A stretch of 64,000 nucleotides of DNA from Patescibacteria group bacterium (GTDB taxonomy: Bacteria; Patescibacteriota; Microgenomatia; UBA10105; UBA927): assembly GCA_049322955.1 (NCBI GenBank), contig JBMOPU010000012.1, forward strand, positions 472,150 through 536,149. The letters run 5' to 3'. A model generated the notes under the pieces. The model saw only the letters and a list, made by a program, of their open reading frames with translations, did not search any database and had not been told where the DNA came from. The first letter of the stretch is position 1, and each line of letters starts with the position of its first letter. Shown piece by piece: positions 16,659 to 50,176 of this stretch. Made by a program: the position numbers and the translations under genes.

Positions 16659-16879
16659 CGCTCTTGTGATAATCGAATCTGTCCAGAAGAGATAAAGAGT
16701 ATTTGAATAGAAACAGCGCAGTGCCCTTGCTTTCGCGCGAAAGCGAAAGTCAGCTTGGCTGAGGCACGTCGAGCAAAACGCAAGTTTTCTCTCGAGATTG
16801 CCCTTTAACAATCGAATGGTGATAGGTATTTTTTTGATGTAGTCAGTTTTAGTCAAACTAAAGCTCCTACGTCAATTTT

Positions 16880-18379
<1,500 letters not shown>

Positions 18380-18587
18380 CTATTTGAAAAATATCGATCG
18401 ATCGAGATATCTCGCAATTAGCGGGATGGTCTTTGATATTTTTCTCTCAAAACCCTAGATCCTATGCATCTATCTATGCGTTGCTTCCGCTTTATGCGGT
18501 GTGACCGTACCTATGTGCTCTGGATCCCTATCACCATCCGGTTGTTAAAGGCCGATGACCCGACAAAACGTCGGGTGTAACAAATAG

Positions 18588-21889: not shown

Positions 21890-21964
21890 GGCGCGTTGGC
21901 GAAGTGGTAACGCAGGAGTCTGCAAAACTCCCATGCGCCGGTTCAATTCCGGCACGCGCCTCCA
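21890..21964 (+). tRNA. tRNA-Cys (GCA)
   Basis: A cloverleaf was folded by hand. It has a 7-bp acceptor GGCGCGU/ACGCGCC, anticodon loop CUGCAAA, T-arm GCCGG-UUCAAUU-CCGGC, U73 discriminator and an encoded CCA. Confidence 0.9.
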
Positions 21965-22101: not shown

Positions 22102-22118
22102 ATTCCGGCACGCGCCTC
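22102..22118 (+). repeat. 17-bp direct repeat of the tRNA-Cys 3' end (ATTCCGGCACGCGCCTC)
   Basis: The repeat is identical to 21946-21962 and lies 139 bp downstream. It abuts the stop codon of the convergent YfhO gene and is preceded by a 10-bp hairpin at 22082-22105. Confidence 0.8.
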
Positions 22119-24504
22119 ACGATTTTTTTGATCGCTTCATCAAAAGCAGAAGTCCGCACAGTATCACTCCCGTCACCGAACCGACGACACCCACGGTAAA
22201 TGATAAAGGCTGATACGTGAACGTCACGGTATGTGTGCCTTCGGGTACTGCGACGCCTCGGAAAGTATAGTTTGTCCGATAAAGTGTTGCGGGTTTTTCA
22301 TCCAGCGTTACCTTCCATCCCGGATAGTAGGTGTCGGAAAGAAACAACAGCATGCGTCCGGTCGTCTTTGTATGTACGGTAACTTCATGGGAATGATATG
22401 CGGTTATTGTGGCAGAACCGGTCGCTGAGGTGTCAAACAATACGTCGGGACTTTGTTCGACAAACACCGTTTTATATATGTCGGTTGTCGGTGCAAAAAG
22501 CGAAGCGAGTAATGTCGCATCATCGGTTGCCGTTCGAACATCCGAGTAGAGATGCACTCTTGGCAATGCCTGCGGATAATCGTAGATCGCATAAGTGCCG
22601 TCGCTCCATACCTTGGTAAGTCCGGCGGTGTCCGTTTCAATGGTTTGCCTGTTTTTATCGGGAACAAGTTTTCTCGCAATAGAACGCACCCCCAAAAGAG
22701 AAAGCGTTCTTGCCCGATACGGATCGTTTAAGATATCGTCCATATGATCCGTTGATCGGATAAGCGCATTTGCCCGATCAGGCTCCGTCGTTTCACCTTG
22801 TGAGTTTGCATACGCGAGAAACTCCGCATACCGCCTGATGATAATAGAGTCGTATCCCTCGGGGGAGAACAATCCGAATTGCGTGGCAAAGTTTTTTTCG
22901 ATATAGCCGTTATCGTACGTCCAAAACCGGTCATATTTTTTTGTCGCCAATTGTTGCAATACCGGAACGGCGGGATACACAAACCGCCGTTCGGAGAAGT
23001 ATAGATATTTTTTTGCAAACAATACGACCGTAACAAGTTCAATACCCACCAGCATCCCGAACCCCGCCCGTTTCATTCGGGGAAAGCGAAGCGCTCCCCA
23101 AAGAGCGACCAAGCCGAATACGAAACTTACGGCGGGGATCACCATATTCCGAAGCGAAATCGCATACGCGGTGTTATCGCGGTCAACGTATTTTGCCAAA
23201 ACAGGGAAACCTATGGCCAAAGCGACCGAAAGCATAACAATACCGCTTACCCTTGCTAATGTTTTTCGGGGTAATCCTTTCCGGTAAGCGGCGGCGCCGT
23301 AGGCGGTAAGCACGCTTCCTATGAACGTAACGAGCATCATCATGCGGGAAGGCGTCATGGTCGAAAGCAGAGGAAGTTTGAGGTAGTAAAGAAGCAACCA
23401 TGTCGTAGGAAGAGAAAGGACTAGCGAAAGAGTGATGAGGAAGCAGATACGGAAAAATGCATGGTGTTCATCCTGTTTTTTTATAAAAAACTGACTTGCG
23501 ATAAGCATAAACGGTACGACTCCCAAGAACATAAGACGCTCGTGATAGAACCCGGTTCCGAAATAGTTATACGTTGCGGGATTGCCAAAATAGTCCGGGG
23601 CAAACAGCGTTACCAATTGTTGGAAGGGAAGGAGATACGCATCGAATATATACTTCACGTCAGTAGCGATACGCGTTGACTGACCGTATGCTTCGATATT
23701 GGGAATAAGATGGATAGCCGCAAGGAGTAATGAGGTTATATACGAAAGAAGAAACGCAACCCCGACCGACACCCTGTCCGCGGATTTTCTTAGCCTATAC
23801 GCGATCCACAGCAACGAAAAGGCATATACGTAGAACGTCATCTGAAATGCTCCGGAAAATACGGAAAACGCCAAACTCAACGAGAGGAGTGCAAGCCAAA
23901 CTCCCTTTTTGTCGCGGATATATTGTTCGATTGCCGAAAGCGCAAGCGGCAGAAACAATGCGGAATAGGTGAAAAGGTAACTTTCCTGCCACCACGTCAT
24001 AAAAAAACCGGAAAACGCGTACGATACCGTTCCCAACAGCCGGGGCCCGCGGGAAAATCCCATAATGCCGAGAAACACATACATGGCAATAGCCGAAAGG
24101 ATCGGTTGCAGGATGATAAGCGTCGTCCAGGCATCAACGGTGGGGAGTATGAAAAACATCCATCCCAACGGGTGAAAAATAGCCGACTGATAGGTGGCAT
24201 GAAGGATCGTTCCGGAGAAATTGTACGGATTCCAAAGAGGGAAGAATCCCTGTTTTACCGCCTCGGCGGCGGCGGTTTTTAGGGGAAAGTAGATGCGGAG
24301 ATTATCAAACCCCATGGCTTTGTTGGGAGGACCGTTGGGATACTCGGGAGAAGGGTACGATTTCCACGGTTCGTAGTACGAAACCAGCAGATTGGCGGGG
24401 AAGGGCACGGTATGTGCAACGAAGCTGTCGCGGAAAAGAAAAAGTGAAAAAACGATAATAAATACAACGGGAAGCGCCGCTTCCCACCGTTTAGACATAC
24501 CCAA
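22117..24504 (-). CDS. YfhO-family polytopic membrane protein (paralog 2)
   Basis: The 795-aa protein has the C-terminal block LSDTYYPGWKVTLDEKPATLYRTNYTFRGVAVPEGTHTVTFTY. It is a paralog of 19364-21730. Confidence 0.7.
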   Translation of the reverse strand: MGMSKRWEAALPVVFIIVFSLFLFRDSFVAHTVPFPANLLVSYYEPWKSYPSPEYPNGPPNKAMGFDNLRIYFPLKTAAAEAVKQGFFPLWNPYNFSGTILHATYQSAIFHPLGWMFFILPTVDAWTTLIILQPILSAIAMYVFLGIMGFSRGPRLLGTVSYAFSGFFMTWWQESYLFTYSALFLPLALSAIEQYIRDKKGVWLALLSLSLAFSVFSGAFQMTFYVYAFSLLWIAYRLRKSADRVSVGVAFLLSYITSLLLAAIHLIPNIEAYGQSTRIATDVKYIFDAYLLPFQQLVTLFAPDYFGNPATYNYFGTGFYHERLMFLGVVPFMLIASQFFIKKQDEHHAFFRICFLITLSLVLSLPTTWLLLYYLKLPLLSTMTPSRMMMLVTFIGSVLTAYGAAAYRKGLPRKTLARVSGIVMLSVALAIGFPVLAKYVDRDNTAYAISLRNMVIPAVSFVFGLVALWGALRFPRMKRAGFGMLVGIELVTVVLFAKKYLYFSERRFVYPAVPVLQQLATKKYDRFWTYDNGYIEKNFATQFGLFSPEGYDSIIIRRYAEFLAYANSQGETTEPDRANALIRSTDHMDDILNDPYRARTLSLLGVRSIARKLVPDKNRQTIETDTAGLTKVWSDGTYAIYDYPQALPRVHLYSDVRTATDDATLLASLFAPTTDIYKTVFVEQSPDVLFDTSATGSATITAYHSHEVTVHTKTTGRMLLFLSDTYYPGWKVTLDEKPATLYRTNYTFRGVAVPEGTHTVTFTYQPLSFTVGVVGSVTGVILCGLLLLMKRSKKS

Positions 24505-24634: not shown

Positions 24635-24889
24635 ATGTATTATGTCTATGTACTGAAAAGCAAAGTGAATGATGACCTATATATTGGGTCTAGCGAAGAT
24701 TTACGAGTACGTTTTAAACAGAATAATAATGGCGAGGTTCAGTCAACAAAAGGATATAGACCGTGGGTATTAGCATAATACGAAGCGTATAAGAGTAAAA
24801 AAGATGCATTGGTAAGAGAAAAGAAATTAAAAATGCATGCAGTAAAAAGCGAGCTAAAAACTCGATTAACAAATAGTTTGGGTGCGTAG
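24635..24889 (+). pseudogene. GIY-YIG nuclease-family gene interrupted by an in-frame TAA
   Basis: MYYVYVLKSKVNDDLYIGSSEDLRVRFKQNNNGEV.STKGYRPWVLA is followed by TAA, then the reading frame continues with YEAYKSKKDALVREKKLK... The stop replaces the conserved Tyr of the ..YYEAY.. block, a single-base change from TAT or TAC. The 3' end overlaps tRNA-Ile. Confidence 0.7.
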
Positions 24890-30387: not shown

Positions 30388-31560
30388 ATGAAAAAAACAC
30401 TCTGGGTAATCGCGCTTATCGCTATCGTGAATGCATTAGGGTACGGGATCATTATCCCGATTTTGTATTCGTATTCGCGAAAGTTCGGTCTTACTGATTT
30501 TCAAAACGGGCTGTTGTTTTCGATATTTTCGGTATTCCAATTTATCGCAACGCCGCTTATCGGGAGATTGTCCGATGCGTATGGCAGGCGACCGCTTCTC
30601 CTTATATCGCTTTTGGGGACATCCGCATCATTTTTCACGATGGCGTTTGCGCAAAATGCCGCATGGCTTTTTATCGCACGGGCGCTCGACGGAATAACGG
30701 CGGGAAATATTCCCGTGGCACTTGCAGTCATTTCCGATACGACGGAAGCAAAAAATCGCGCAAAGGGTTTTGGCATTATCGGAGCGTCATTCGGATTCGG
30801 ATTTACGTTCGGTCCCGCCATTTCCGCATTCACCTTACACCTCGGTGAATCCGCGCCGTTTATCATCGCCGGTGTTATCGCGCTCGTTGCCTTTTTGCTT
30901 ACGGCGGTGTTCCTTCCGGAAACCAACATGCATAAAGGATCACAGGTTTCCCGTCATGTATTTGATTTTCGGCACTTATTCCATGCGCTGGTTGATCCCG
31001 CGATAGGGAAAACCCTTATCGTTTCTTTTTTGGTGATGCTCGCATTTTCAATTTTCATCTACGCGTTTCAACCGATGTCAGTAGAGGTACTCAGGCTTTC
31101 CCCTCAACAGATATCGGTCATTTTCACGATTATGGGGGTAATCGGTCTTATATCGCAGGGGATGGTTATTCCCCGCGTTATCCGGTTGTTTGGAGAGCGC
31201 GTAACCCTGGTCGGGGCGATGGCGGTATCGGTAGTGACCTATACGGTTTTATACTTTATGCGCGCATATCCGCTCTTTCTTACGGTGGTACTTATCCAAT
31301 CATTTGCCAACGGATTTGCCAATCCGATTATCCAGGCGTTGCTTTCCAAAGAGGCCGATGCTAAAAGTCAGGGGTCGATTTTGGGGGTGAACGCTTCGTA
31401 TCAAAGTATCGGACAAATTGTGGGTCCGGTCATCGGCGGCACGTTATCGACGTTTTTTATTCCGCTTCCGTTTTTGGCGGCGGCGATGGTCATGGGAGCG
31501 GCCATGCTCCTCTCGTTCGGCATGCTGAAACAGCATCTGCGTGCCAGGTCATTGGTATAA
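30388..31560 (+). CDS. MFS transporter (Tet/TCR-like)
   Basis: GRLSDAYGRRPLLLISL MFS motif A, with 12 TM helices. Confidence 0.8.
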   Translation: MKKTLWVIALIAIVNALGYGIIIPILYSYSRKFGLTDFQNGLLFSIFSVFQFIATPLIGRLSDAYGRRPLLLISLLGTSASFFTMAFAQNAAWLFIARALDGITAGNIPVALAVISDTTEAKNRAKGFGIIGASFGFGFTFGPAISAFTLHLGESAPFIIAGVIALVAFLLTAVFLPETNMHKGSQVSRHVFDFRHLFHALVDPAIGKTLIVSFLVMLAFSIFIYAFQPMSVEVLRLSPQQISVIFTIMGVIGLISQGMVIPRVIRLFGERVTLVGAMAVSVVTYTVLYFMRAYPLFLTVVLIQSFANGFANPIIQALLSKEADAKSQGSILGVNASYQSIGQIVGPVIGGTLSTFFIPLPFLAAAMVMGAAMLLSFGMLKQHLRARSLV

Positions 31561-31621
31561 GCTTCGCGTTCGTGCAATCACTTCACAAACGGCGTATAAT
31601 ACCGTGCAACGAGACCATTAT

Positions 31622-32422
31622 ATGTATCCTTTTATCGAACGCCGATCCTCACCGCAACGGGAACTCCTTAATCGCAACAACCTCATTATGACTATCGACG
31701 GGTCAACGACCGCGGGCAAACGGGTGATCGCGGAGCACCTTGCCGACCGATATAATTTGACGGTATTAAATACCGGAACCTCCATACGTGCCATGGCGCT
31801 CTTATCGATAGAAAACGGACTCGTCAATACCAACGATACCAATGTGACCATGATCCCTTCCGACTTTGCCGATAGAGTTGCGGATCTGTATGATCAGATG
31901 CCCGAAAAGCTAACCATTACCAAACCCCGCGACGGCGAACATACGGCTCGGGTGATGGTGGGTGCACGTGATATGCGCGGCGAGCTCCTTGCCTACGAGA
32001 AGCAAAAGGCCATTGAAAATCTTTCCTCCGTGATTGCGGCGAGCCCCGTGATTCGTTGGAAATTGTATCAGTTGTGGCGCAAAGCCGCGGAGGAATTGGG
32101 CGGCACGATTGTGATCGGGAGAAAAACCGGGATCGATCTGTTTCCCAACGCCCCGATTAAAATGTATTTTTTTGCCAGTCCGGAAGCATCCGCCGCGTAT
32201 CGGGTGACGCATGACCCGACTGCCACCATGCATCAGACCACCGAGGAACTTTATGTTCGCGAACGGGACGGACAGGATCAGGAGAATGGCTTGCTTGATA
32301 GGCCCGCCGGAGCAATGGTGATCGATACGAGTAATTACATCAGTCGTACGGACGGGAAGGGACTTGCGGAGTTGGAAGCGCAGATAGCAAAAAACATTGA
32401 AGCCCGCTGGGACATCAGGTAA
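31622..32422 (+). CDS. Cytidylate kinase-like family protein (paralog 1)
   Basis: MTIDGSTTAGKRV resembles Cmk ITIDGPSGAGKGT. The later block GTIVIGRKTGIDLFPNAPIKMYFFASPEASAAYR resembles Cmk DGRDMGTVVFPDAPVKIFL.AS.EERA.RR. The start was set at the Met after the MFS stop. Confidence 0.6.
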   Translation: MYPFIERRSSPQRELLNRNNLIMTIDGSTTAGKRVIAEHLADRYNLTVLNTGTSIRAMALLSIENGLVNTNDTNVTMIPSDFADRVADLYDQMPEKLTITKPRDGEHTARVMVGARDMRGELLAYEKQKAIENLSSVIAASPVIRWKLYQLWRKAAEELGGTIVIGRKTGIDLFPNAPIKMYFFASPEASAAYRVTHDPTATMHQTTEELYVRERDGQDQENGLLDRPAGAMVIDTSNYISRTDGKGLAELEAQIAKNIEARWDIR

Positions 32423-32993: not shown

Positions 32994-33367
32994 ATGAGAA
33001 GGGTATTATACTCCAAGCGGGGGATGAATCAAAAATCTGCCCTATCCATATAGAGAGCGGGGTTTTTTATGATATCGCGGCAAAGCGCGGAGTCTGGGTA
33101 ATGACCTGACGCATCCCGGTTGGGGAGGGTGTAATAATGCACAGACTCGACCACGACGGTATGTTCCGTTGCCATGTCGGGTGCTGATTCAACTTGAGTC
33201 GTCACGCAGGAGTGACTTTCGGGTTTTGGAGAAGGGGGTGTCGTCGGGGTGTCCCGCATGTCGTGCGTGTGCGGAGTATGTTCTTGCCATGACATACCAA
33301 TGCCATTATACACCCCGTGTCCAGAGAACGATCACTTGACACGTCTTCTCCAAACAGTGCCACACTG

Positions 33368-34405
33368 ATGGGTGGTATGGCAAAAATAGTGAAAAAGAAA
33401 AAAATCGCAAAAAAAGCACACAAATCAAGCGCTTCCGTACCTCGTGCCGTAAAGGACTCATGGACGATCAAACGGATCTATATTCCGTTAGGGCTCGCCG
33501 TGGTGGCGCTTGTTGCGTCGTCTCAGCTGACGTACACACAAAGTTTTCGAAGCGATGTATTGGGTGATGAAGATAAGGTAGCGCAAGAAGAACAGAAAGA
33601 AGCGGAGGATCGCCGAAAAGAGGAAGAGAAGCTGCACGAAGAGGAGGCCAAGCGGGAAGAAGAGCGGGAACAAGAGCGGGAACAAGAACAGGAGCAGGAA
33701 CAGGAAAAAGATGGCACTACGAGCACTTCCGCGGTACGGGTGAAATCAGAACGGGAAATGGAGACGAAAAACGGTGTCAAGATCAAATCCAAAGTAGAAG
33801 ACGACGGGGCAAGAAAAATTGAGGTAGAAGGGGAAGGTGTGCATTTTAAGTTTGAAGAAGAAAACGGTGAAGTACGCCTTAAAGTCGAAAATGAAGAGGG
33901 TAAAGAGCTGGAGACGCGTAAACATCTGAGTGTCGTGGATGAGCTTGAGGACGCATTGGATGAGGAAGAGATAGAAATCTCAAGCGATGAGGGGCACCTC
34001 GAGCTGAAACATAACGCCGTTCGTGCCCGGGTGAATTTCCCCTTATCTATCGATCCGGTTACCAAGGAACTGATCGTCACTACGCCCGCAGGTGAAAAAA
34101 CCGTCGCCGTCCTTCCCGACGCCGCACTCAAAAACCTGCTTATCAAGGGATTCCTTACCGAAGTAGCCTCCGGCTCGGCCACGGTTGCCGATGCCAGCGG
34201 CTCTGCCGGCATGGCAAACGCATTTGAATTAAAGGTCCATAACGGAAATCTGGTCTACGAAATTAGAGGAACCAAGAAGCAGAAGTTTTTTGGAATCATG
34301 CCGGTGTCCATCCCCAAAACCATGACGGTATCGGCATTAAGCGGCGAAGTGCTTTCGGAAACACAGTCGATATTCTCCCGAATGCTCGGTCTGTTCTCCT
34401 TTTAA
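33368..34405 (+). CDS. Membrane-anchored Glu-rich low-complexity protein
   Basis: Basic N-terminus and a TM helix, followed by an acidic EEEKLHEEEAKREEEREQEREQEQEQEQEK tract encoded by short tandem DNA repeats. An ordered C-terminal domain follows. No homolog was recognised. Confidence 0.6.
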   Translation: MGGMAKIVKKKKIAKKAHKSSASVPRAVKDSWTIKRIYIPLGLAVVALVASSQLTYTQSFRSDVLGDEDKVAQEEQKEAEDRRKEEEKLHEEEAKREEEREQEREQEQEQEQEKDGTTSTSAVRVKSEREMETKNGVKIKSKVEDDGARKIEVEGEGVHFKFEEENGEVRLKVENEEGKELETRKHLSVVDELEDALDEEEIEISSDEGHLELKHNAVRARVNFPLSIDPVTKELIVTTPAGEKTVAVLPDAALKNLLIKGFLTEVASGSATVADASGSAGMANAFELKVHNGNLVYEIRGTKKQKFFGIMPVSIPKTMTVSALSGEVLSETQSIFSRMLGLFSF

Positions 34406-34458: not shown

Positions 34459-35229
34459 ATGGCATTTTCCGAACATATTTCCGCCTCCGCCTCTATCGGC
34501 ATTCACGGTGCGAGTGCCGTTGGCAAAGAACAAACCGCCGATGTCTTGGCACCGATATTGGGAATGCGCGTTATCAATACGGGAAGGTCCATTCGTGGTA
34601 CGGCGCTTATGGCGCACGTGCTCGGGCAGTTTGAAGAGGGAAAGGGAAAAAATATCCGGCTTCGCGATGGGGCGGTTGAGCGGATCGCCGACTGGGTCAG
34701 CGCGGGATCCAAAGGATTGCACTTTGAAACCCGAGCCCCCGATACTTCAGCTCCCATATTTTTTGCCGATGCGGATCTTACCGATGCCATCCGACCCAAA
34801 CGAAGGGGATTTACCCGCCAGTCCGTTATGGAGCCCGCCGCCGCGCTCATCGCTACAAACCCGCATATCCGAACGGCACTGTTATCAATGTGGCGGGATA
34901 CCTCGATCGCGTTGGGCGGCGCCGTCATAATAACGAAAAACATCGACGAATATCTGCCCGAAGCACGTGGGGTGTTTCACTTAATTGTTTCCGATCCCGC
35001 GGTATCTGCTACCTATCGTCTAAGGCGGCATATTGCGGCAACGAGATCGTTAGAGGATGAAATTGCCTATCTCAAAGAACGGGACAGATTGCATTTGGAT
35101 AACGGGCTGGAGCAGATTCCCAAACGGGCGGTGAAGATCGACATGACGCCGCTCCTTCTCAAGCGGAACGGATTTTTCAAGGCGGCGCACCTAATAAAAG
35201 GTTCGCTGGCGAAAACCTTTACATCCTGA
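34459..35229 (+). CDS. Cytidylate kinase-like family protein (paralog 2)
   Basis: The IGIHGASAVGKEQ P-loop-like block and overall collinearity with 31622-32422. Identity to paralog 1 is low. Confidence 0.55.
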   Translation: MAFSEHISASASIGIHGASAVGKEQTADVLAPILGMRVINTGRSIRGTALMAHVLGQFEEGKGKNIRLRDGAVERIADWVSAGSKGLHFETRAPDTSAPIFFADADLTDAIRPKRRGFTRQSVMEPAAALIATNPHIRTALLSMWRDTSIALGGAVIITKNIDEYLPEARGVFHLIVSDPAVSATYRLRRHIAATRSLEDEIAYLKERDRLHLDNGLEQIPKRAVKIDMTPLLLKRNGFFKAAHLIKGSLAKTFTS

Positions 35230-35232
35230 CCT

Positions 35233-35472
35233 ATGCTGAAAGAAGTACTTTCGTCCCGCGCAAAACAACGCCTTATCCTTGCCGCTCGTGCCATGGATAA
35301 AAGCGAGGAAAAAAGTTTGGCGCTCATTACCGAAGAAGTCGATGCGATCACGCAACCTAATGTCCCTGCCATTGAAATGGCCACGGGGATAGTAAGCATT
35401 GTGGGGCAACGGATGATGAAAAAGCCTGCGGCAATCGTTGCCGGGATCGAAGAATTGCTAAGGAAACGGTAA
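35233..35472 (+). CDS. Hypothetical small protein (79 aa)
   Basis: It lies 4 nt after the upstream stop on the same strand and has plausible composition. No homology was recognised. Confidence 0.35.
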   Translation: MLKEVLSSRAKQRLILAARAMDKSEEKSLALITEEVDAITQPNVPAIEMATGIVSIVGQRMMKKPAAIVAGIEELLRKR

Positions 35473-35477
35473 TACCT

Positions 35478-35822
35478 CTATTTGGTAATCGGCGGGCGGG
35501 AGAGGCGGGTGATGCGGACATCTGCCATGCCGCTGGCGACCGCAGACTCCTTTGGCACCCGGGCGATAGTGCGGGAATAGTCATCCAAACGAACGGGAAA
35601 TCTGCCTTGTAACGCATAGGTTACCGTACACTCGCTATCCGGTCCTTCGGTGACCACGACTTCTATTGCTGAAGCATCGCCCGTCCTATTTTTGACTCGT
35701 GCGTCGGGAAACCCTTTTACCCATCCGATATTCCGGCGTTTGGTGTTTGATCCGATGAGACTGGTTTCTTCCACTTCAACCACATCAGCTATCATCAGGC
35801 TCAGTTCTTTGGCGGCTCGCAT
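35478..35822 (-). CDS. Hypothetical protein (114 aa)
   Basis: An ORF with protein-like composition, convergent with 35233-35472. No motif was recognised. Confidence 0.4.
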   Translation of the reverse strand: MRAAKELSLMIADVVEVEETSLIGSNTKRRNIGWVKGFPDARVKNRTGDASAIEVVVTEGPDSECTVTYALQGRFPVRLDDYSRTIARVPKESAVASGMADVRITRLSRPPITK

Positions 35823-35942
35823 GGGGAGATAGTAGAGTTCTACGCTATTGCTGTCAAGAAAGCGGGGAAAAACTTTTGGGAATGTGATGTCGTGCTCGTA
35901 TGTCGACTTGTTTGCGGGGGAATAATTAGCTATACTTCCCCC

Positions 35943-36512
35943 ATGATTTTGTCTGATCGGGATATTGTGGCTTCTCTAAAATCCGGGCGTATAAAGATTG
36001 TTCCTGCCGTTAACCAAAAAACACAACTCGGTTCCTGTTCCGTCGATCTTCGCCTGGGCAAACATTTCCGCGTCTTTAATCACAGTAAATTTGCGTATAT
36101 TGATCCCAATAATCCCAAACTTGCAACCGGGATGATGGCGGAAGTGAAGCTCAAAGACGGCGAGCCCTTCATTCTCCAGCCGGGGGATTTTGTCCTGGCG
36201 ACAACCATGGAAAAAGTGACATTGCCCGATGACCTTGTGGGGCGATTGGAGGGCCGTTCCAGTTTGGGGAGACTCGGTATTGTCGTCCATTCCACCGCAT
36301 CCGTGTTTGATCCCGGTTGGTCGGGGATGGTGGTTATGGAGCTTGGGAACCTCGGTCGTATGCCCGTAGCGCTGTACCCCGGGATGCGAATCTGCAGTAT
36401 GACGTTTGAAGAATTAAGTTCTCCTGCCCTTGTGCCGTACACGAAGAAAAAAACGGCGAAATATATCGGGCAAAACGCCCCGCTTGCCAGCAAAATAGGT
36501 GATGACCGATAA
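35943..36512 (+). CDS. dcd: dCTP deaminase
   Basis: MILSDRDI..., VDLRLG..FR, ILQPGDFVLATT.E.V.LP.DLVGRLEGRSSLGRLG and DPGWSG.VV.EL.N.G..P..L.PGMRI align along the full length with E. coli Dcd. Confidence 0.9.
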   Translation: MILSDRDIVASLKSGRIKIVPAVNQKTQLGSCSVDLRLGKHFRVFNHSKFAYIDPNNPKLATGMMAEVKLKDGEPFILQPGDFVLATTMEKVTLPDDLVGRLEGRSSLGRLGIVVHSTASVFDPGWSGMVVMELGNLGRMPVALYPGMRICSMTFEELSSPALVPYTKKKTAKYIGQNAPLASKIGDDR

Positions 36513-36514
36513 CT

Positions 36515-38047
36515 ATGAGTGATTGGCCGATTCTCTACAAGCAAGTATTGCACGTCAAAGACCCCAAAAATCCCGTGGGGGTGGCGATCATGTGGACGGA
36601 ACGACAAGTGGTTGCCGACATGTTAAAAAGTGAAAGCTACTGTGCCGTCGGCAACCTGTATTCTTCGGCCGGAATCTCCGCAATGATCAGAAACGTCTAT
36701 GCCAACCCGCACATTCGGAAAATCGTCTTATGGGGCGCCGATCTTTCCCGAAGCGGTTCGGCACTCATGGCGCTTATGGCAAACGGGGTGGACGAAAACT
36801 TCTTTATCATCGGCGATGAAAAGGGCGGGCAGATCGAAAAAGAAATCGGACACGAGGCGATTGATCTTTTCAGAAAATCGGTTGAGGTCATTAATCTTCG
36901 CGGCAAATCACCCGATGAGTTACGCAGTACGGTGGCCAGACTGGGGAGTGAGCCGCCCGTTCCCTTTACCGAACCCAAGGTGTTTCCGACCTCACGCCCC
37001 AAACCCTTCACCTATCCGTCGGAACAAATCGGTTTCCGTATCCACGGGCAGACCGCGGCACAGACCTGGCTTAAAATCCTCCATAACATCATGCGCTACG
37101 GGCGAAACAAGACGACGCGCTACACTCAGGAAAACGAACTCAAAGAGCTCTTAAATGTTATGGCGGTGGTCTATGACGAAGATCCCGAAAAACCGTACCT
37201 TCCCAAATTTTTCCCCTTCTCGGAAAAAGACTTACAAACCTACTACCCGCAGGTACTTTCCGCCAAACAGATTCCTGGTATCGCCTACACGTACGGACAA
37301 CGCCTCCGTGATCATGACGGGGTTGATCAGATCCAGAACATCATCGATCTTATTAAGACCCGCCCGTTCTCCAAAAAAATGGTGGCATTCACCGCAAAGA
37401 TCAAAGAAGACTGGTCGGTCGTCAATAAAGGAGATACCCCGTGTCTTACGCAGATCTTGTGTAGCATCCAGGACAATAAATTGTTTATGACCACGCATTT
37501 TCGCAGTCAGGATATGGTGCACGGATGGCCGCGCAACGTGTTTAGTCTCAGAAAACTCCAGAAACTTATCTCCGATGAATCGGGAGTTCCCATGGGCACG
37601 TTTGTCATGATTACCCACAGCGCGCACATCTATAGTGACGATTACGAATTGGTGGAAAAAATCCTTGCGGAAAATTTTGAGCATGAACTGGGGTACACCA
37701 GCCGCCAGATGTTTGAAGACGATCCCCGCGGCAATATCACGGTGGAAATAGAGGAGTGCGGCAAAAAACCGGTCGGCAGACCCACCAAATATGCCGAGAA
37801 ACCCACGGATAAAGAGTATGAAATCGTAGTCAAACTCTATGCACCCAACGGCGGATTACTGCTCAAGGAATGGCGGGGGAAAACCGCGATGGAAGTGTAT
37901 ATCGAAATGGTCAATATCGGTGAATTTTTGGTACTTCCCAGTCACGCCATCTATATCGGTACCGAACTACAACGGGCCGAATATTATATAAAGTTAGGCA
38001 TCCCCGAAAAATACAATCAGGATCCCGCCGCCAATAAGGCGCTCTAA
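36515..38047 (+). CDS. Fusion protein: MtrA-like N-terminal domain + thymidylate-synthase (ThyA)-like domain + uncharacterised C-terminal extension
   Basis: Residues 1-150 contain DWPIL..., NPHIRKIVLWGADLSRSGSALMALMANG and FIIGDEKGGQIEKEI...VEVINL. These parallel MtrA blocks GWPI.., NPNIR..L.GSEV.GH..GQ...L..NG and IIGAKGAIPF.EN...V.LID. Residues ~180-400 contain ThyA blocks AYTYGQRLR, PCLTQIL (Cys nucleophile), HFRSQDMVHGWPRNVFS (cf. YQRSCDVFLGLPFNIAS) and ITHSAHIYSDDYE. The last ~110 aa match nothing recognised. The stop of dcd lies 2 nt upstream. Confidence 0.7.
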   Translation: MSDWPILYKQVLHVKDPKNPVGVAIMWTERQVVADMLKSESYCAVGNLYSSAGISAMIRNVYANPHIRKIVLWGADLSRSGSALMALMANGVDENFFIIGDEKGGQIEKEIGHEAIDLFRKSVEVINLRGKSPDELRSTVARLGSEPPVPFTEPKVFPTSRPKPFTYPSEQIGFRIHGQTAAQTWLKILHNIMRYGRNKTTRYTQENELKELLNVMAVVYDEDPEKPYLPKFFPFSEKDLQTYYPQVLSAKQIPGIAYTYGQRLRDHDGVDQIQNIIDLIKTRPFSKKMVAFTAKIKEDWSVVNKGDTPCLTQILCSIQDNKLFMTTHFRSQDMVHGWPRNVFSLRKLQKLISDESGVPMGTFVMITHSAHIYSDDYELVEKILAENFEHELGYTSRQMFEDDPRGNITVEIEECGKKPVGRPTKYAEKPTDKEYEIVVKLYAPNGGLLLKEWRGKTAMEVYIEMVNIGEFLVLPSHAIYIGTELQRAEYYIKLGIPEKYNQDPAANKAL

Positions 38048-38056
38048 CCGTACGCT

Positions 38057-38800
38057 ATGCATACACCGGTCATTGAAGTCGTGAGTGAAACTCACGGCAA
38101 ACCTTCCGTCGTCAGAGTACTTCTTGTTATGCAGACATTTTTGTACCGATATCCGCGATTCGGGGTATGGTGTTATCTTATCCGTTCGGGGAAAAAAGTC
38201 GTGGTATTTGACGCGGGACCTCGGTTCTCGTCGCTGTTGGGCGGGAAATGGGGCAGGGATGTCGATAATACCGCGCGAATTTTGTATGCCCTCGATAGGT
38301 ATTTCCCGGATATGCCGGTATCGTTTATCGCCGCGTCGCATTATCACTTTGATCATGTCGAAAACGCACCGCATTTACAACAGCGGCTGGCGAAACGTCA
38401 GAAGACAGTGCCGCCGATACGACTTCATACGAACGAGTACGAACCCAAACGATTTTTACACGTGTTTCCGCATTCGCTCATACGGGTATTTCAACAGGCG
38501 GGTTATAGCGATTGGAGGCTGGGAAAGCCTATTTGCGACGGTGAAAGAATTGCCGGTTCGTCATATCGATTCGTGCATTGCCCGGGGCATACAAGCGGCA
38601 ATTTGGCACTGCGAAGCGACATAGAAAAGGTATTTATCGGCGGGTATTGGGCGATCCCAAAACAGCGGGTCGGGATACTCGCACGGATTATTACTTCCTT
38701 TGTTGATGAATCGACGGCATGTTTCCCCGTCACGATACGCCACATGCAGGGATGTGAATCATACCGTATCGCCACCTATCATCCGACACTCGGCAGATAG
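38057..38800 (+). CDS. MBL-fold metallo-hydrolase
   Basis: ASHYHFDH (HxHxDH) plus downstream His/Asp ligands (HCPGHTSGN). Confidence 0.75.
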   Translation: MHTPVIEVVSETHGKPSVVRVLLVMQTFLYRYPRFGVWCYLIRSGKKVVVFDAGPRFSSLLGGKWGRDVDNTARILYALDRYFPDMPVSFIAASHYHFDHVENAPHLQQRLAKRQKTVPPIRLHTNEYEPKRFLHVFPHSLIRVFQQAGYSDWRLGKPICDGERIAGSSYRFVHCPGHTSGNLALRSDIEKVFIGGYWAIPKQRVGILARIITSFVDESTACFPVTIRHMQGCESYRIATYHPTLGR

Positions 38801-38846
38801 CGGGGTTTCTTGACAACACCCGCTACGGGTCTGCATACTGGTAGCA

Positions 38847-39581
38847 ATGTTTGACTATCTGTTTGGCCTTCTGCTTTTTGTGCTCGGACTCGGTCGTCCC
38901 TCCGTACTGGGTGAACAGGCTTCCGATTCGGCAAAACCTTCCGCACAACTGAAACTCATGCGTCCCAAGTTTTCCGCCGAACAACAGGAAGCATTTCAGA
39001 AGGAACGCATGAAACAGGAAGCAAACATAAAGCGGATCAGCGATGCGAGAATGAAGGAACTGGAAAAAACTTATGCCGAAAAACAAAAATCCAGGAGCGA
39101 AAAAGATGCGGTAACCAAGCAAGTACTTGCGGAAAAACTGGCCGGGTTTAAGGACGCCCAAAAACGACAAAAAGTGCAGGCCATGGCGGATACATATCAG
39201 AAAACCGTTCCCGCCATGCTTGCCGGCATGCAAAAGAAATTAACCGACATGATGTCGCTTTTGGATCGGATCACCGCGGCCGCTGGTGCGATGAAAACAC
39301 AAGGTGTTGACGTTGCGGAAATAGAATCCAATGTCGCGGCGGCACAAGCGAAGGTGAGCAGTGTGTTGTATGCCGTCGAGGCACTCACCGAGTCTGTTCC
39401 GACCGTGCTTACCGTAAGCGGTGAAGATGCGGCCGGTGAAGACATTAAAAACGCGGTACGCGAGCTAAAGGAATCAGTACGTGATGTCCGCTCCGCATTT
39501 GCCGAAGCGCATAAAGCCGTGGGAATTGCCTTGGAGAATCTTGAGGAAATAACAAATGCCGTAGAGGTCGGGGAGCGATAA
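38847..39581 (+). CDS. Secreted/membrane-anchored coiled-coil protein
   Basis: N-terminal hydrophobic signal/anchor, then K/E/A-rich heptad-like sequence. No enzymatic motif. Confidence 0.5.
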   Translation: MFDYLFGLLLFVLGLGRPSVLGEQASDSAKPSAQLKLMRPKFSAEQQEAFQKERMKQEANIKRISDARMKELEKTYAEKQKSRSEKDAVTKQVLAEKLAGFKDAQKRQKVQAMADTYQKTVPAMLAGMQKKLTDMMSLLDRITAAAGAMKTQGVDVAEIESNVAAAQAKVSSVLYAVEALTESVPTVLTVSGEDAAGEDIKNAVRELKESVRDVRSAFAEAHKAVGIALENLEEITNAVEVGER

Positions 39582-39584
39582 TAT

Positions 39585-39881
39585 ATGAAAAAATCATCGG
39601 TTCTTGTCATCATCGTTCCGCTTCTTATCGCAGGAATTGTCGTGGGGAGCGTTCTTGTGGTGCGGTATTTTTCACCGGTGCCCGAAGAAAGCAAAGCCGC
39701 ACTCAACCCTGTGCCCTCCGTGTATCCGGAACTCATCGACCCGACCGGAAAGCCGGAAGTGGGATTTGAAGGCTTACAGCCGAGCGAGCCTGTATCCGAT
39801 CTCCGCATGGAATTCGAAACCGCAAGTGACAGTTCCGGAGAAGCTATCGAAATCCTCGAACGGGAAGCCGATTCGTTTTAG
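39585..39881 (+). CDS. Small membrane-anchored protein (98 aa)
   Basis: It starts 4 nt after the upstream stop. It has a TM helix (VLVIIVPLLIAGIVVGSVLVV) and an acidic tail. Confidence 0.45.
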   Translation: MKKSSVLVIIVPLLIAGIVVGSVLVVRYFSPVPEESKAALNPVPSVYPELIDPTGKPEVGFEGLQPSEPVSDLRMEFETASDSSGEAIEILEREADSF

Positions 39882-45670: not shown

Positions 45671-46780
45671 ATGCGGATTTTCTTTACTGCGGCAACTACC
45701 AATAACGGTGATTACCTTACTCAGGAAAAAGCGATTGTTGCGGGTATAAAAAAGTTCGGTCACACCCTCACCTCCGGCGAACAGATACTCGACCACAAAA
45801 AACTTGCCAAAGATGCGGCTACCACGGCGGAAGAAATTTTTTACCGGGAAAAACAAGCCATTGACGAGGCCGATTGCGTCATTGCCGAAGTGACGAAACC
45901 CAGTAGCGGGGTCGGCGGAGAGTTGGTGTATGCGCTGACGCATCACAAACCGGTCTTGGCGCTTTTTTACAAAGATGCCCCGAATGAACTTTCAACCATG
46001 ATTTCCGGGAATCCTTCCGACCACTTATTTCTCGAGCATTACGATGAAGACAGCTTATCGATCATCATGAAGCATTTTCTGGAACAAGTTGAAGTGGAAA
46101 AAAACAGGCGCGGCAAACTGATCGTGATCGACGGCGGGGACGGATCGGGGAAAACCACCCAGGCACAGCTTTTGACGTCCTATTTTACCGACCGGGGAGT
46201 ACCGGTGAAATCATTTGATTTCCCGAGGTATTATAGTTCCTTCCACGGAAAAATGGCGGGGAGGTTTTTGGCGGGAGAATTCGGTGAAAACGTATCTCCC
46301 TACCTTGCATCGCTTGCCTATGCGCTTGATCGGGCGAGTGCGAAAGAAGAAATGGATTTATGGCTTTCCCACGGAGGAATTATCGTCTCTAACCGCTATG
46401 CGACCAGTAATATGGCGCACCAGGGAGCACGCCTTCCGGAAAAAGATCGGAAAGAATTTTTGGCATGGATCGATGAGCTGGAGTACAAAGTTCACAAAAT
46501 TCCCCGTGAAGATATCGTGATTTATCTGCATGTCCCGTGGCAAATAGGGATGGAGCTTACCAAGAAAAAAGGAGAGCGGGCATATCTGGGTGAGAAAAGC
46601 GATATTTTGGAAGCCGATGTCCGCCATCGGCAGGCCTCCGAGGATATGTATCTGACACTTGCCCGTGAACGAGTTGGCTGGGAGCTTATTGAATGTGCGG
46701 AAAACGGTTTAATTCTTCCGAAAGAGGCAATTCACCAAAAAGTGCTCGATGTTTTAAAAAAACGCGGTATCATTACGTAA
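45671..46780 (+). CDS. tmk: Fusion: nucleoside 2-deoxyribosyltransferase/DNPH1-like domain + thymidylate kinase
   Basis: The N-terminal ~150 aa carry KPSSGVGGELVYA (cf. DNPH1/Rcl PSLGVGYELGRA). The C-terminus has the Tmk P-loop LIVIDGGDGSGKTTQ, the DRY-like VSNRYATS block and lid residues. Confidence 0.75.
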   Translation: MRIFFTAATTNNGDYLTQEKAIVAGIKKFGHTLTSGEQILDHKKLAKDAATTAEEIFYREKQAIDEADCVIAEVTKPSSGVGGELVYALTHHKPVLALFYKDAPNELSTMISGNPSDHLFLEHYDEDSLSIIMKHFLEQVEVEKNRRGKLIVIDGGDGSGKTTQAQLLTSYFTDRGVPVKSFDFPRYYSSFHGKMAGRFLAGEFGENVSPYLASLAYALDRASAKEEMDLWLSHGGIIVSNRYATSNMAHQGARLPEKDRKEFLAWIDELEYKVHKIPREDIVIYLHVPWQIGMELTKKKGERAYLGEKSDILEADVRHRQASEDMYLTLARERVGWELIECAENGLILPKEAIHQKVLDVLKKRGIIT

Positions 46781-48363: not shown

Positions 48364-48858
48364 ATGACAAGCCGATATGAATTGGCACAGCGTGCGGCGG
48401 ATGCCTACGATATCTATCGCGCCTATTTCGGTGTTCCCGAGGATCACGAGGCCTATGCCCGTTTTTTTACGCCGCCGGTGTGTAATAAGGCCGAACCCCG
48501 AATGCGCCGAATGATGGAAACAACAACCCGGCAGGGGGAACGGTTACTTTTGGGTACCCGCGTATGGGGACTTATGGAGAAGCGATATGTGTACGGACTT
48601 GAACGTTGGATACCGCATGCCCCGCAACGGGCACACCTTACGGTTGTGGTGAAAAATCCTCTTGCCGAAATAGCGGATGCCCTTTGTGAACGACTCGGGG
48701 TCCGGAACGCGCTTATCGTCTATGACAAATTGCCCATACCGCAAGTGCTCATGGGGGGAGTGATACGAAAAAGCGTCTATGCGATTCGTCCGGTGCTTGA
48801 AGGAGATGTCAAACAGGCTCTGCTTGCCCTCTGGAAAAAGCATGAAGTACTCCGATGA
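48364..48858 (+). CDS. Hypothetical protein (164 aa)
   Basis: It starts 4 nt after the upstream stop and has protein-like composition. No motif was recognised. Confidence 0.45.
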   Translation: MTSRYELAQRAADAYDIYRAYFGVPEDHEAYARFFTPPVCNKAEPRMRRMMETTTRQGERLLLGTRVWGLMEKRYVYGLERWIPHAPQRAHLTVVVKNPLAEIADALCERLGVRNALIVYDKLPIPQVLMGGVIRKSVYAIRPVLEGDVKQALLALWKKHEVLR

Positions 48859-50176
48859 TATAATGCGATATATGGATACGGATATCGCCTCCCTTATTGC
48901 GGAAGAAACCCGCCGCCAACAGGAAACACTTGCCATGATTCCGTCGGAAAACATCGTCTCTCCCGCGGTGCGCGACGCGTTGGGATCGGTCTTAACCAAT
49001 AAGTACTCCGAAGGATATAGCCACAAACGGTATTATCAGGGAAACAAAACGATCGATAAAGTGGAGGATATCGCAATAGAGCGTGCCAAAACATTGTTCA
49101 GCGTGCCGCACGTCAACGTACAACCGTATTCGGGTTCGCCGGCAAATAGTGCCGTATATTTCGGCTTGCTCAATCCCGGCGACACCATTATGGGGTTAAA
49201 ACTATCCGGCGGCGGGCATTTGACGCACGGACATCCCGACATCACCTTCTCCGGCAGGTATTTCCGTTCGGTGCAATATGACGTTACAAATGAGGGTTTC
49301 ATCGACATGGAGGCGGTAGCCCGACAGGCAACACAGGAAAAACCCCATCTTATCGTCGTTGGGACGACCGCATACCCTCGGATGTATGATTGGGCGGCGT
49401 GGCGTGCGGTTGCCGACTCGGTGGGAGCGCTCCTTCTTGCCGATATTTCACACATTGCGGGCTTGGTGGTCGGCGGCGTTCATCCGTCGCCCGTGCCTTT
49501 TGCCGACGTTGTGATGACGACCACGCATAAATCGTTGCGAGGACCGCGAGGCGCCATGCTCATGGTGACAGAGCGGGGACTCAAAAAAGATCCCGCCATG
49601 GCGGACAAAATCGACAAGGCGGTGTTTCCCGGTCTTCAGGGAGGACCCCATGACAATGTGACCGCCGCGATAGCGGTAGCACTGTATGAAGCAAGCCAGC
49701 CTTCTTTTACCGAGTACGCCAAACAAGTCGTACTCAACGCCAAAACACTGGCCGATACACTGCTGAGTGGCGGGATAACACTTACGACCGGCGGCACCGA
49801 TAACCATCTCATGGTTATCGATCTGCGTCCGCAAGGCACGGTAGGGAATGTTGTTGCCGAGGCGCTTGAATATGCGGGTATCGTGGTCAATAAAAACAGT
49901 GTGCCCCACGACACCAATCCGCCGTTTTATCCTTCCGGTATTCGTCTCGGCACTCCCGCACTCACGACCCGCGGTATGAAGGAAAAAGAAATGGCACAAA
50001 TAGGAAAATGGATTATTGATGTTATTGTTCGCATGCGTGCGTTTCAGCTTCCCGAAACAAAAGATGCACGTCGAACTTTTATGAGTTCGGTACGGAAGGA
50101 ACTTGCCGATGATGCGATTTTGCATGAAATCGCGGTTCAGGTTGCCAAATTGTGCGCGGCATTTCCGCTTCGCTGA
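48842..50176 (+). CDS. glyA: Serine hydroxymethyltransferase
   Basis: SENIVSPAVRDALGS.LTNKY.EGY...RYY.G, the PLP-Lys block VVMTTTHKSLRGPRG, and GG.DNHL..IDL. An alternative start lies at 48863. Confidence 0.95.
   Translation: MKYSDDIMRYMDTDIASLIAEETRRQQETLAMIPSENIVSPAVRDALGSVLTNKYSEGYSHKRYYQGNKTIDKVEDIAIERAKTLFSVPHVNVQPYSGSPANSAVYFGLLNPGDTIMGLKLSGGGHLTHGHPDITFSGRYFRSVQYDVTNEGFIDMEAVARQATQEKPHLIVVGTTAYPRMYDWAAWRAVADSVGALLLADISHIAGLVVGGVHPSPVPFADVVMTTTHKSLRGPRGAMLMVTERGLKKDPAMADKIDKAVFPGLQGGPHDNVTAAIAVALYEASQPSFTEYAKQVVLNAKTLADTLLSGGITLTTGGTDNHLMVIDLRPQGTVGNVVAEALEYAGIVVNKNSVPHDTNPPFYPSGIRLGTPALTTRGMKEKEMAQIGKWIIDVIVRMRAFQLPETKDARRTFMSSVRKELADDAILHEIAVQVAKLCAAFPLR

Follow-up and report, generated by a model that had tools for sequence, protein, structure and literature searches.

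Two mechanisms of thymidylate synthesis are known, that of ThyA, in which folate donates both the carbon and the hydride, and that of ThyX, which uses a flavin. The archaeal methanogen-type ThyA (NCBIfam TIGR03283, for example the M. jannaschii-type mini-ThyA) has a trimmed form of the ThyA fold, without the classical folate loop and C-terminal tail but with Cys, Arg-Ser-x-Asp, Asn and His-x-Tyr residues, and the bifunctional DHFR-TS of protozoa and plants joins thymidylate synthase and an N-terminal cofactor-related domain in one polypeptide. MtrA, a B12-binding methyl carrier and the corrinoid subunit of methyl-H4MPT:coenzyme M methyltransferase, holds cobalamin with His84 as axial ligand, a hydrogen-bond relay through Glu54 and Ile111 and a GAIPF/YxEN meander in the site, and its nucleotide-tail pocket is formed by Asp17-N, Lys52-N, Thr53, Gly57-O, Asn64, Tyr18 and Val61 (Wagner et al. 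2016, PMC4915002). Here we describe a 510-amino-acid (aa) protein encoded in a 64,000-nucleotide (nt) stretch of contig JBMOPU010000012.1 from a Patescibacteria group bacterium (the window, to which all coordinates refer unless another locus is named), in which a ThyA core of the trimmed archaeal type is embedded between an MtrA-like N-domain and a DUF4346 C-domain. We see about an even chance that this protein is the thymidylate synthase of its host, with a one-carbon (C1) donor site built by an MtrA/DUF4346 module that has no cobalt ligand and a methylene-pterin donor used without cobamide. The fused gene and its upstream neighbor are laid out as follows:

35943-36512, forward strand: dcd, dCTP deaminase, 189 aa (TIGR02274, 207.3 bits against a cut-off of 92.8; PF22769, 158.9 bits)
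36515-38047, forward strand: three-domain protein MtrA-like::ThyA::DUF4346, 510 aa (Pfam, NCBIfam and AlphaFold2 model)
36515-36964, forward strand: N-domain, aa 1-150, MtrA fold without the cobalt ligand
37031-37690, forward strand: ThyA core, aa 173-392, with the codon of the nucleophile Cys310 at 37442-37444
37721-38029, forward strand: C-domain, aa 403-505, DUF4346 (PF14251), with a clade-specific loop at aa 415-434

The start of dcd is best set at the ATG at 35943, with both the TIGR02274 and the Pfam match beginning at residue 2 of the product, and its TAA stop, ending at 36512, leaves a 2-nt spacer (CT) before the ATG of the fusion at 36515. These two open reading frames (ORFs), that spacer and the ORF of a metallo-beta-lactamase (MBL)-fold hydrolase further downstream lie where an earlier, sequence-only reading of this DNA had placed them, and all the motifs that it quoted were located in the fusion: DWPIL (aa 3-7), NPHIR (64-68), WGADLSRSGSALMALMANG (73-91), PCLTQ (309-313), RSQD (330-333) and HIYSDDYE (371-378).

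Each of the three domains scored above its curated Pfam cut-off: PF04208 (MtrA) at aa 2-130 with 42.9 bits against 25, PF00303 (Thymidylat_synt) at aa 258-387 with 67.5 bits against 24.3, covering only positions 92-225 of the 266 in the model, and PF14251 (PterinBD-DUF4346) at aa 432-503 with 39.8 bits against 29.6. A search of PDB sequences returned ThyA (4dq1, E = 2e-12) and MtrA (5laa, E = 8e-11). The sequence-only reading was right to see a true MtrA homologue and a ThyA-like core in this protein, while the C-terminal ~110 aa, which it took to match nothing recognised, proved to be DUF4346. The best NCBIfam model for the core was the methanogen-type TIGR03283, matched at aa 176-378 over nearly its full length with 143.5 bits, short of its whole-protein cut-off of 174.55. 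The core shares with the archaeal mini-ThyAs the trimmed fold and the Cys, Arg-Ser-x-Asp, Asn and His-x-Tyr residues; that shortfall and the embedding between two extra domains set it apart from them. Bifunctional DHFR-TS differs in all three parts, since the N-domain here is MtrA-like and not DHFR (PF00186 was not matched in the 510-aa protein), the core is of the trimmed archaeal type and the C-domain is additional. AlphaFold2, given 128 diverse homologues, returned a model with a pLDDT of 92.6 and a pTM of 0.90, with low confidence only in the loop at aa 415-434; as far as a predicted structure goes, this pTM indicates a fixed inter-domain arrangement. All three domains were equally conserved, with mean family identities to the query of 34% (N-domain), 35% (core) and 35% (C-domain).

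The fusion is a large family that is known to databases but unstudied in the literature searched. All of the best 120 database clusters (77-100% identical; Patescibacteria, Gottesmanbacteria or Microgenomates) had the same three domains and either carried the name 'thymidylate synthase' or were listed as hypothetical. Among 1.8 billion representatives searched, 311 clusters reached E ≤ 1e-30, and 128 of 129 diverse proteins of 440-560 aa kept the full set of domains. Species-representative genomes contained at least 589 loci, distributed over Chloroflexota, many lineages of the Candidate Phyla Radiation (CPR), DPANN archaea (Woese-, Nano-, Aenigm-, Micr- and Pacearchaeota) and one Planctomycetota; this number is a lower bound, as the scan pattern was drawn from 20 sequences and missed the clade of the query itself, where the motif reads FRSQDMVHGW. 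None of the confirmed loci came from a named cultured strain. The sequence-only reading had proposed to drop its case if identical fusions were already annotated as plain ThyA with a characterised accessory domain. They are annotated as such, but the accessory domains are uncharacterised in the literature searched, which yielded no paper linking thymidylate synthase with MtrA or MtrH, and the finding of a variant thymidylate synthase is hence not refuted.

Residue by residue, the nucleotide side of the core is canonical and looks uracil-specific, and the cofactor side appears rebuilt. In E. coli ThyA numbering, with query equivalents alongside, the core keeps C146 (C310), R166 (R330), S167 (S331), D169 (D333), N177 (N341), H207 (H371), Y209 (Y373) and Y94 (Y260), with the catalytic and dUMP-binding residues shared by at least 90% of family members. 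Among 60 aligned fused sequences, the nucleophile, which sits in a Pro-Cys motif (P309-C310), is Cys in 59 and the equivalent of position 177 is Asn in 58. On the other side of the active site, the alignment columns of the classical folate loop (I79/W80/W83) are gaps, and the C-terminal segment of ~50 residues that closes the folate site is missing, with the core stopping ~20 aa after the H-x-Y motif. L172 and F176, the hydrophobic pair that sandwiches the p-aminobenzoyl ring in classical ThyA, are His and Arg in the query, and both positions vary across the family. Of the pterin contacts, D169 is retained.

The Asn at position 177 argues for uracil specificity and bears directly on an alternative that had been raised with the fusion, namely that a ThyA-fold enzyme makes another C5-modified pyrimidine nucleotide, for example as a dUMP hydroxymethylase. 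In the dCMP and CMP hydroxymethylases (T4 gp42, MilA), Asp replaces this Asn for cytosine, whereas the query has Asn341, and the structural similarity of the protein to these enzymes is generic to the ThyA fold. A product other than dTMP would also fit poorly with the presence of thymidylate kinase (tmk) directly downstream of the fusion in relatives, often overlapping it, with a family spread over at least 589 cellular genomes whose very small gene sets need an essential source of dTMP, and with the lack of a second thyA in the window. Its one point of support is the co-occurrence of the fusion with canonical ThyA at two DPANN loci (L068 and L052, described below), and on balance we regard this alternative, disfavoured above all by the Asn and by tmk, as very improbable.

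The N-domain was compared with MtrA in an alignment of 128 diverse fused family members and four reference MtrAs. His84 and the residue after it are deleted in 127 of the 128 fused proteins, the query included, and His84 is present in 4/4 references. Glu54 is Ser in the query and Lys, Pro, Arg or Ala elsewhere in the fused family, Asn55 and Gly109-Ala110 are mostly deleted (the latter pair being Lys-Gly in the query), and the meander residues P112, E115 and N116 are not conserved. Homologous to MtrA (PF04208; PDB 5laa and 5l8x) in sequence and fold, the N-domain thus differs from it in having no His84, Glu54, GAIPF/YxEN meander, membrane anchor or mtr operon, and it scores 46.5 bits with the MtrA equivalog TIGR01111, whose cut-off is 249.15. 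By this alignment it is a real MtrA homologue that has lost the cobalt-ligation network, and it is not decaying: it is conserved as well as the core and C-domain. At the tail pocket, position 53 is Ser or Thr in 112/128 sequences (88%), Gly57 is kept in 126/128 (98%) and Asn64 in 111/128 (87%), and positions 18 and 61 are hydrophobic, a pattern compatible with a pocket that may have been retained. The sequence-only reading had likened the N-domain to the cobamide-binding subunit MtrA. Its wider suggestion that C1-donor handling differs from that of canonical ThyA is reasonable, given the missing folate contacts and flanking domains as conserved as the core, but cobamide binding by the N-domain cannot be assumed as part of it.

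The C-domain carries the DUF4346 motifs D-x-x-G, H-A-x-Y-x-G-x-E-L and Y-x-Q-D (aa 403-407, 475-489 and 500-503), which are common to stand-alone members, with Asp403, Arg405, His477, Glu484 and Gln502 as invariant polar residues. Its profile matches 3630 proteins, many of them stand-alone domains of ~100-130 aa and some of them ferredoxin::DUF4346 fusions. The Pfam name 'PterinBD-DUF4346', which probably goes back to proteins that have both this domain and Pterin_bind, served us as a name only and was rejected as evidence of pterin binding; a literature search found no paper containing 'DUF4346'. Two further families share the domain without having a ThyA domain. NF002128 (Cys-rich::MtrA::DUF4346, ~390 aa) has the same MtrA-DUF4346 pairing as the fusion, and its examined members keep His84, while TIGR00284 (DUF6513::Pterin_bind::DUF4346, 'dihydropteroate synthase-like') has a pterin-binding domain that also matches models of methyl-THF:corrinoid methyltransferases. 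In the window protein, a Lys/Pro-rich loop of 20 residues, GKKPVGRPTKYAEKPTDKEY (37757-37816, aa 415-434), interrupts the first hairpin of DUF4346; this loop, modelled with low confidence, is specific to the Gottesmanbacteria-like clade and absent from P0112 and distant members.

Separate genes for the same three parts were found among loci that encode stand-alone copies of DUF4346 (L085-L091) and in a metagenome scan seeded with stand-alone DUF4346, which gave 80 loci that were analysed locally. In eleven loci of the scan, a 270-290-aa MtrA::DUF4346 protein is followed directly by a ThyA-like gene of ~257 aa, without MtrH. At L092-L098, MtrA, MtrH, DUF4346 and the ThyA-like protein are all separate genes, and at L091, from the first set, a serine hydroxymethyltransferase (SHMT) gene (divergent), MtrA, MtrH, DUF4346 and a 259-aa ThyA-like gene stand in a row, each part being ~30-49% identical to the matching domain of the fused proteins. 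The unfused systems, among them the two-gene ones of DPANN/Pacearchaeota-type contigs (L100, L115, L124, L152 and L154), share the dcd/tmk operon context of the fusion: dcd, MtrA::DUF4346, ThyA-like and tmk follow one another in L124, L152 and L154, and dcd lies upstream of the unfused system in L132, L138, L166 and L122 and downstream of it in L098, L099, L100 and L115. Triple fusions like that of the window also turned up in the set (L151, L159 and L161). MtrA and DUF4346 are therefore a recurrent pair, linked with ThyA-like enzymes by three independent arrangements of genes within dTMP-pathway operons. Because a two-domain MtrA::DUF4346 protein with only a short linker exists, ThyA can be read as an insertion into an MtrA/DUF4346 module.

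Fused and unfused systems differ in their active-site residues. Both Glu54 and His84 are kept in the MtrA of all 16 ThyA-linked unfused cases with sequence and gone in all triple fusions of the same comparison, so that the cobalt ligand has been lost specifically in the fused form. The unfused systems also differ from the fusion in that their parts are separate polypeptides, that MtrH is sometimes present, and that their ThyA-like cores have Lys for R166, Thr for S167, Gln or Asn for H207 and Ser or Thr for R127. A further difference is an insertion in the unfused ThyA-like proteins (L093 5308-6084, L115 5350-6132 and others), ~35 residues long, in which three cysteines are invariant (R-C-Y-P-D-C ... 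G-K-C). It is absent from the fused family and from canonical ThyA and may be a metal site.

The remaining loci with DUF4346, in the scan and among L085-L090, were of several kinds. Some consist of MtrA, MtrH, a MetE-like gene and DUF4346, others encode NF002128-type or TIGR00284-type proteins (L140 has DUF4346 with a MeTr-like pterin-binding domain of TIGR00284), and L087-L089 have stand-alone DUF4346 with no such context. L085 and L090, on Thermoplasmata-type contigs, contain MTHFR, MtrA, MtrH, a MetE-like methyltransferase and DUF4346. They belong to a recurrent archaeal cluster of (MTHFR), MtrA, MtrH, MetE-like (Meth_synt_2) and DUF4346 genes (L085 679-4339, L090 1361-4306, L101, L103, L108 and L112), which resembles a corrinoid-dependent methionine synthase system in which DUF4346 would be an unrecognised fifth component. 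At L086 (2230-4579), a ferredoxin (Fer4_15/Fer4_13)::DUF4346 fusion directly follows a B12-binding radical-SAM gene, another link between DUF4346 and a cobalamin enzyme.

These operons give unexpected support to a cobamide-dependent thymidylate synthase, in which the MtrA-like domain would hold a corrinoid base-off/His-off, as in the corrinoid iron-sulfur protein. Methyl-cob(III)amide would then give CH3+ to C5 of the Cys-activated dUMP, or Co(I) would supply two electrons, and either way no dihydrofolate would arise and no DHFR would be needed. In favour of such an enzyme are the unfused operons in which MtrA has both His84 and Glu54 beside dcd, a ThyA-like gene and tmk (L124, L152, L154 and others) or in which MtrA, MtrH, DUF4346 and a ThyA-like gene stand together (L091-L098), the recurrence of DUF4346 with corrinoid methyl-transfer parts (the MtrA, MtrH and MetE-like loci, L140 and L086), the tail-pocket residues retained in the fused N-domain, and an N-domain conservation equal to that of the core. 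For the fusion itself, however, every fused protein examined has the cobalt-ligation network (His84, Glu54, Asn55 and the meander) deleted or replaced, the surroundings of the fused genes contain neither MtrH nor a MeTr-like loader, and the fused cores keep the pterin-contacting D169 as well as R166, S167 and H207, for which the corrinoid-linked split cores have Lys, Thr and Gln. The hosts are genome-reduced and probably cannot make cobamides, which also counts against it. We therefore consider cobamide dependence of the fusion unlikely. We would likewise not expect, on present evidence, a corrinoid-linked third route to thymidylate, in which cobamide carries methyl or electrons in the unfused operons and the fusion still binds it His-off in the tail pocket, making dTMP without pterin oxidation or DHFR. 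As judged from these sequences, the cobamide idea is weakened for the window protein, and a corrinoid mechanism is more plausible for the unfused relatives than for the fusion.

We examined the gene neighborhood of the fusion in a sample of 80 distant and 6 close-relative loci. Thymidylate kinase was the commonest neighbor, found at 23 of the 80 distant loci and directly adjacent downstream on the same strand at 16; dcd/dut-type genes (13 and 10), a P-loop kinase (13) and thymidine kinase (6) followed, and MtrH was found at none of the 80. The gene for dCTP deaminase lies directly upstream of the fusion in relatives of 78-93% identity, and with the 2-nt gap seen here it is a conserved and tightly (translationally) coupled partner; the sequence-only reading had already pointed to this coupling. 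Two DPANN loci combine the fusion with canonical ThyA and DHFR. In L068 the order is canonical ThyA, DHFR::SHMT, the triple fusion and then tmk, while in L052 the genes for DHFR and canonical ThyA face the triple fusion from the other strand. In L068 (3244-8093, a Woesearchaeota contig), the whole thymidylate cycle and a second synthase thus form one cluster on one strand, with a DHFR::SHMT protein of 605 aa.

In the window, a deoxynucleoside kinase, a deoxyribosyltransferase::thymidylate-kinase fusion and SHMT are encoded within 12 kb of the fused gene, and neither canonical thyA, folA or dut nor MtrH was found in the 64 kb. Three further genes matter to what follows:

38057-38800, forward strand: MBL-fold hydrolase, 247 aa, adjoining the fusion and outside the conserved system (PF00753, 49.3 bits)
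45671-46780, forward strand: nucleoside 2-deoxyribosyltransferase::thymidylate kinase fusion, which would take dTMP onward (PF02223, 62.2 bits; PF05014, 33.4 bits)
48779-50176, forward strand: SHMT, a source of methylene-tetrahydrofolate (PF00464, 495.6 bits)

Our proposal for the 510-aa protein runs as follows. Dcd, made from the same message, would supply the deoxyuridine nucleotide; the ThyA core would bind dUMP, Cys310 would attack C6 and the one-carbon unit would be added at C5; and thymidylate kinase would use the resulting dTMP. The two flanking domains, MtrA-like and DUF4346, behave as a single conserved module into which ThyA is inserted; they may together form the missing cofactor-binding lid or scaffold, and the module would thereby act on the C1-donor side, where the core has lost its classical folate contacts. 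It is probably a descendant or a sister of a corrinoid-binding MtrA::DUF4346 protein whose partner in other lineages is a separate ThyA-like enzyme. The donor would most likely be a methylene-pterin, with the nearby SHMT providing methylene-tetrahydrofolate and no His-on cobamide taking part. That the product is dTMP is supported by dcd upstream and by tmk downstream in relatives, and a cobamide-independent reaction with methylene-pterin is favoured because the His84 network is gone, no corrinoid-loading methyltransferase is encoded nearby and the core keeps the canonical residues, including the pterin-contacting Asp; we nevertheless infer, rather than observe, the product, the role of the module at the C1-donor site and the identity of the donor.

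Several observations weigh against this proposal. R126 and R127, the dUMP phosphate contacts from the partner subunit, are Lys-Lys (K286/K287) in the query clade, where the family consensus has Arg-Arg, and archaeal thymidylate synthases have not been characterised experimentally, leaving their physiological C1 donor unestablished (PMC9931769). Canonical ThyA and DHFR beside the fusion at L068 and L052 indicate that it may not be simply redundant with ThyA. We had considered DHFR adjacency as proof that the fusion produces dihydrofolate and rejected it, as the full-length canonical ThyA at both loci explains the DHFR and makes them uninformative on this point; coexistence could be redundancy, replacement in progress or a different function. 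Finally, the retained tail-pocket residues would be more easily explained by a bound nucleotide-like ligand than by a pure scaffold.

There are two further alternatives to a donor site of the kind we propose. The extra domains could be non-catalytic, serving oligomerisation, stability or allosteric nucleotide regulation on an ordinary folate-dependent mini-ThyA. Stand-alone archaeal mini-ThyAs of ~200 aa do exist (the TIGR03283 model has a length of 201), the cobalt ligands are lost and DUF4346 is fused to many different partners, in the manner of a docking domain. The invariant polar residues of DUF4346 and Trp27, Tyr49 and Arg59 of the N-domain suggest ligand binding or chemistry instead, and the association persists across three gene organisations, which together leave a non-catalytic role distinctly unlikely. 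Alternatively, the flanking module might bind another nucleotide-type redox cofactor, a flavin or NAD(P)H, and supply reducing equivalents, so that ThyX-like logic would operate on a ThyA scaffold and tetrahydrofolate would be released. A Rossmann-like N-domain with a conserved pocket, invariant residues unlike those of MtrA (Tyr49 and Arg59) and the existence of Fer4::DUF4346 fusions are consistent with such a cofactor, which we nonetheless rate as highly unlikely.

The MBL-fold hydrolase, in which the sequence-only reading had seen a partner of the fusion, keeps its fold assignment but loses that role. We rejected it as an operon partner after finding no homologue at any of the 80 distant or 6 close loci, including the syntenic L172. 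At 93% identity and with a gene order that is otherwise unchanged, this locus goes from the fusion directly to a homologue of the window's next gene, from which it follows that the MBL gene is a strain-level insertion.

In many Patescibacteria, DPANN archaea and Chloroflexota, the fusion appears to be the sole gene of the thyA type close to those for nucleotide metabolism, and in it a ThyA core is physically joined with homologues of a B12-binding methyl carrier. Functional folA, glyA and folD are encoded by some CPR bacteria (PMC11974145), and the role of MtrA and MtrH outside methanogens has been called 'unclear' (PMC11291895, PMC9635834). Should the module do no more than stand in for the folate-binding lid, a textbook enzyme would show a new structural solution. 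Involvement of a corrinoid, in the unfused relatives or here, would mean that a DNA precursor can be made in a new way; the 'orphan' MtrA and MtrH genes of non-methanogens would then have a role, and folate and B12 dependence would have to be inferred differently from the genomes of ultra-small symbionts.

The rest of the window has a gene content typical of CPR bacteria and includes a complete bacterial 16S rRNA gene (16877-18379, forward strand; Rfam RF00177, 1347.6 bits); 23S and 5S genes were not found anywhere in the 64 kb. Two ORFs that fall inside the 16S gene (17782-18162 and 18154-18417) are spurious. The closest tRNAs are tRNA-Cys at 21890 and tRNA-Ile at 24880, and two large YfhO-family membrane proteins (19364-21730, forward strand, 788 aa; 22117-24504, reverse strand, 795 aa) are encoded on either side of the tRNA-Cys downstream of the 16S gene. 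A scan of 35200-39700 for promoters and terminators gave sites no more frequent than in shuffled sequence. In the deoxyribosyltransferase::thymidylate-kinase fusion, the deoxyribosyltransferase-like domain occupies aa 17-104 and the thymidylate kinase domain aa 153-309 of the single 369-aa ORF, and a histidine-phosphatase gene comes after it. Upstream of dcd, two cytidylate-kinase-like genes lie near each other (31541-32422 and 34459-35229, both on the forward strand) with a NUDIX gene on the opposite strand between them; the second is very divergent (PF02224, 17.3 bits, under the cut-off). A 362-aa protein encoded at 33317-34405 (forward strand), which has no Pfam match, combines an N-terminal hydrophobic segment with a long low-complexity stretch rich in Glu and Lys, in which EQEQEQEQ occurs.

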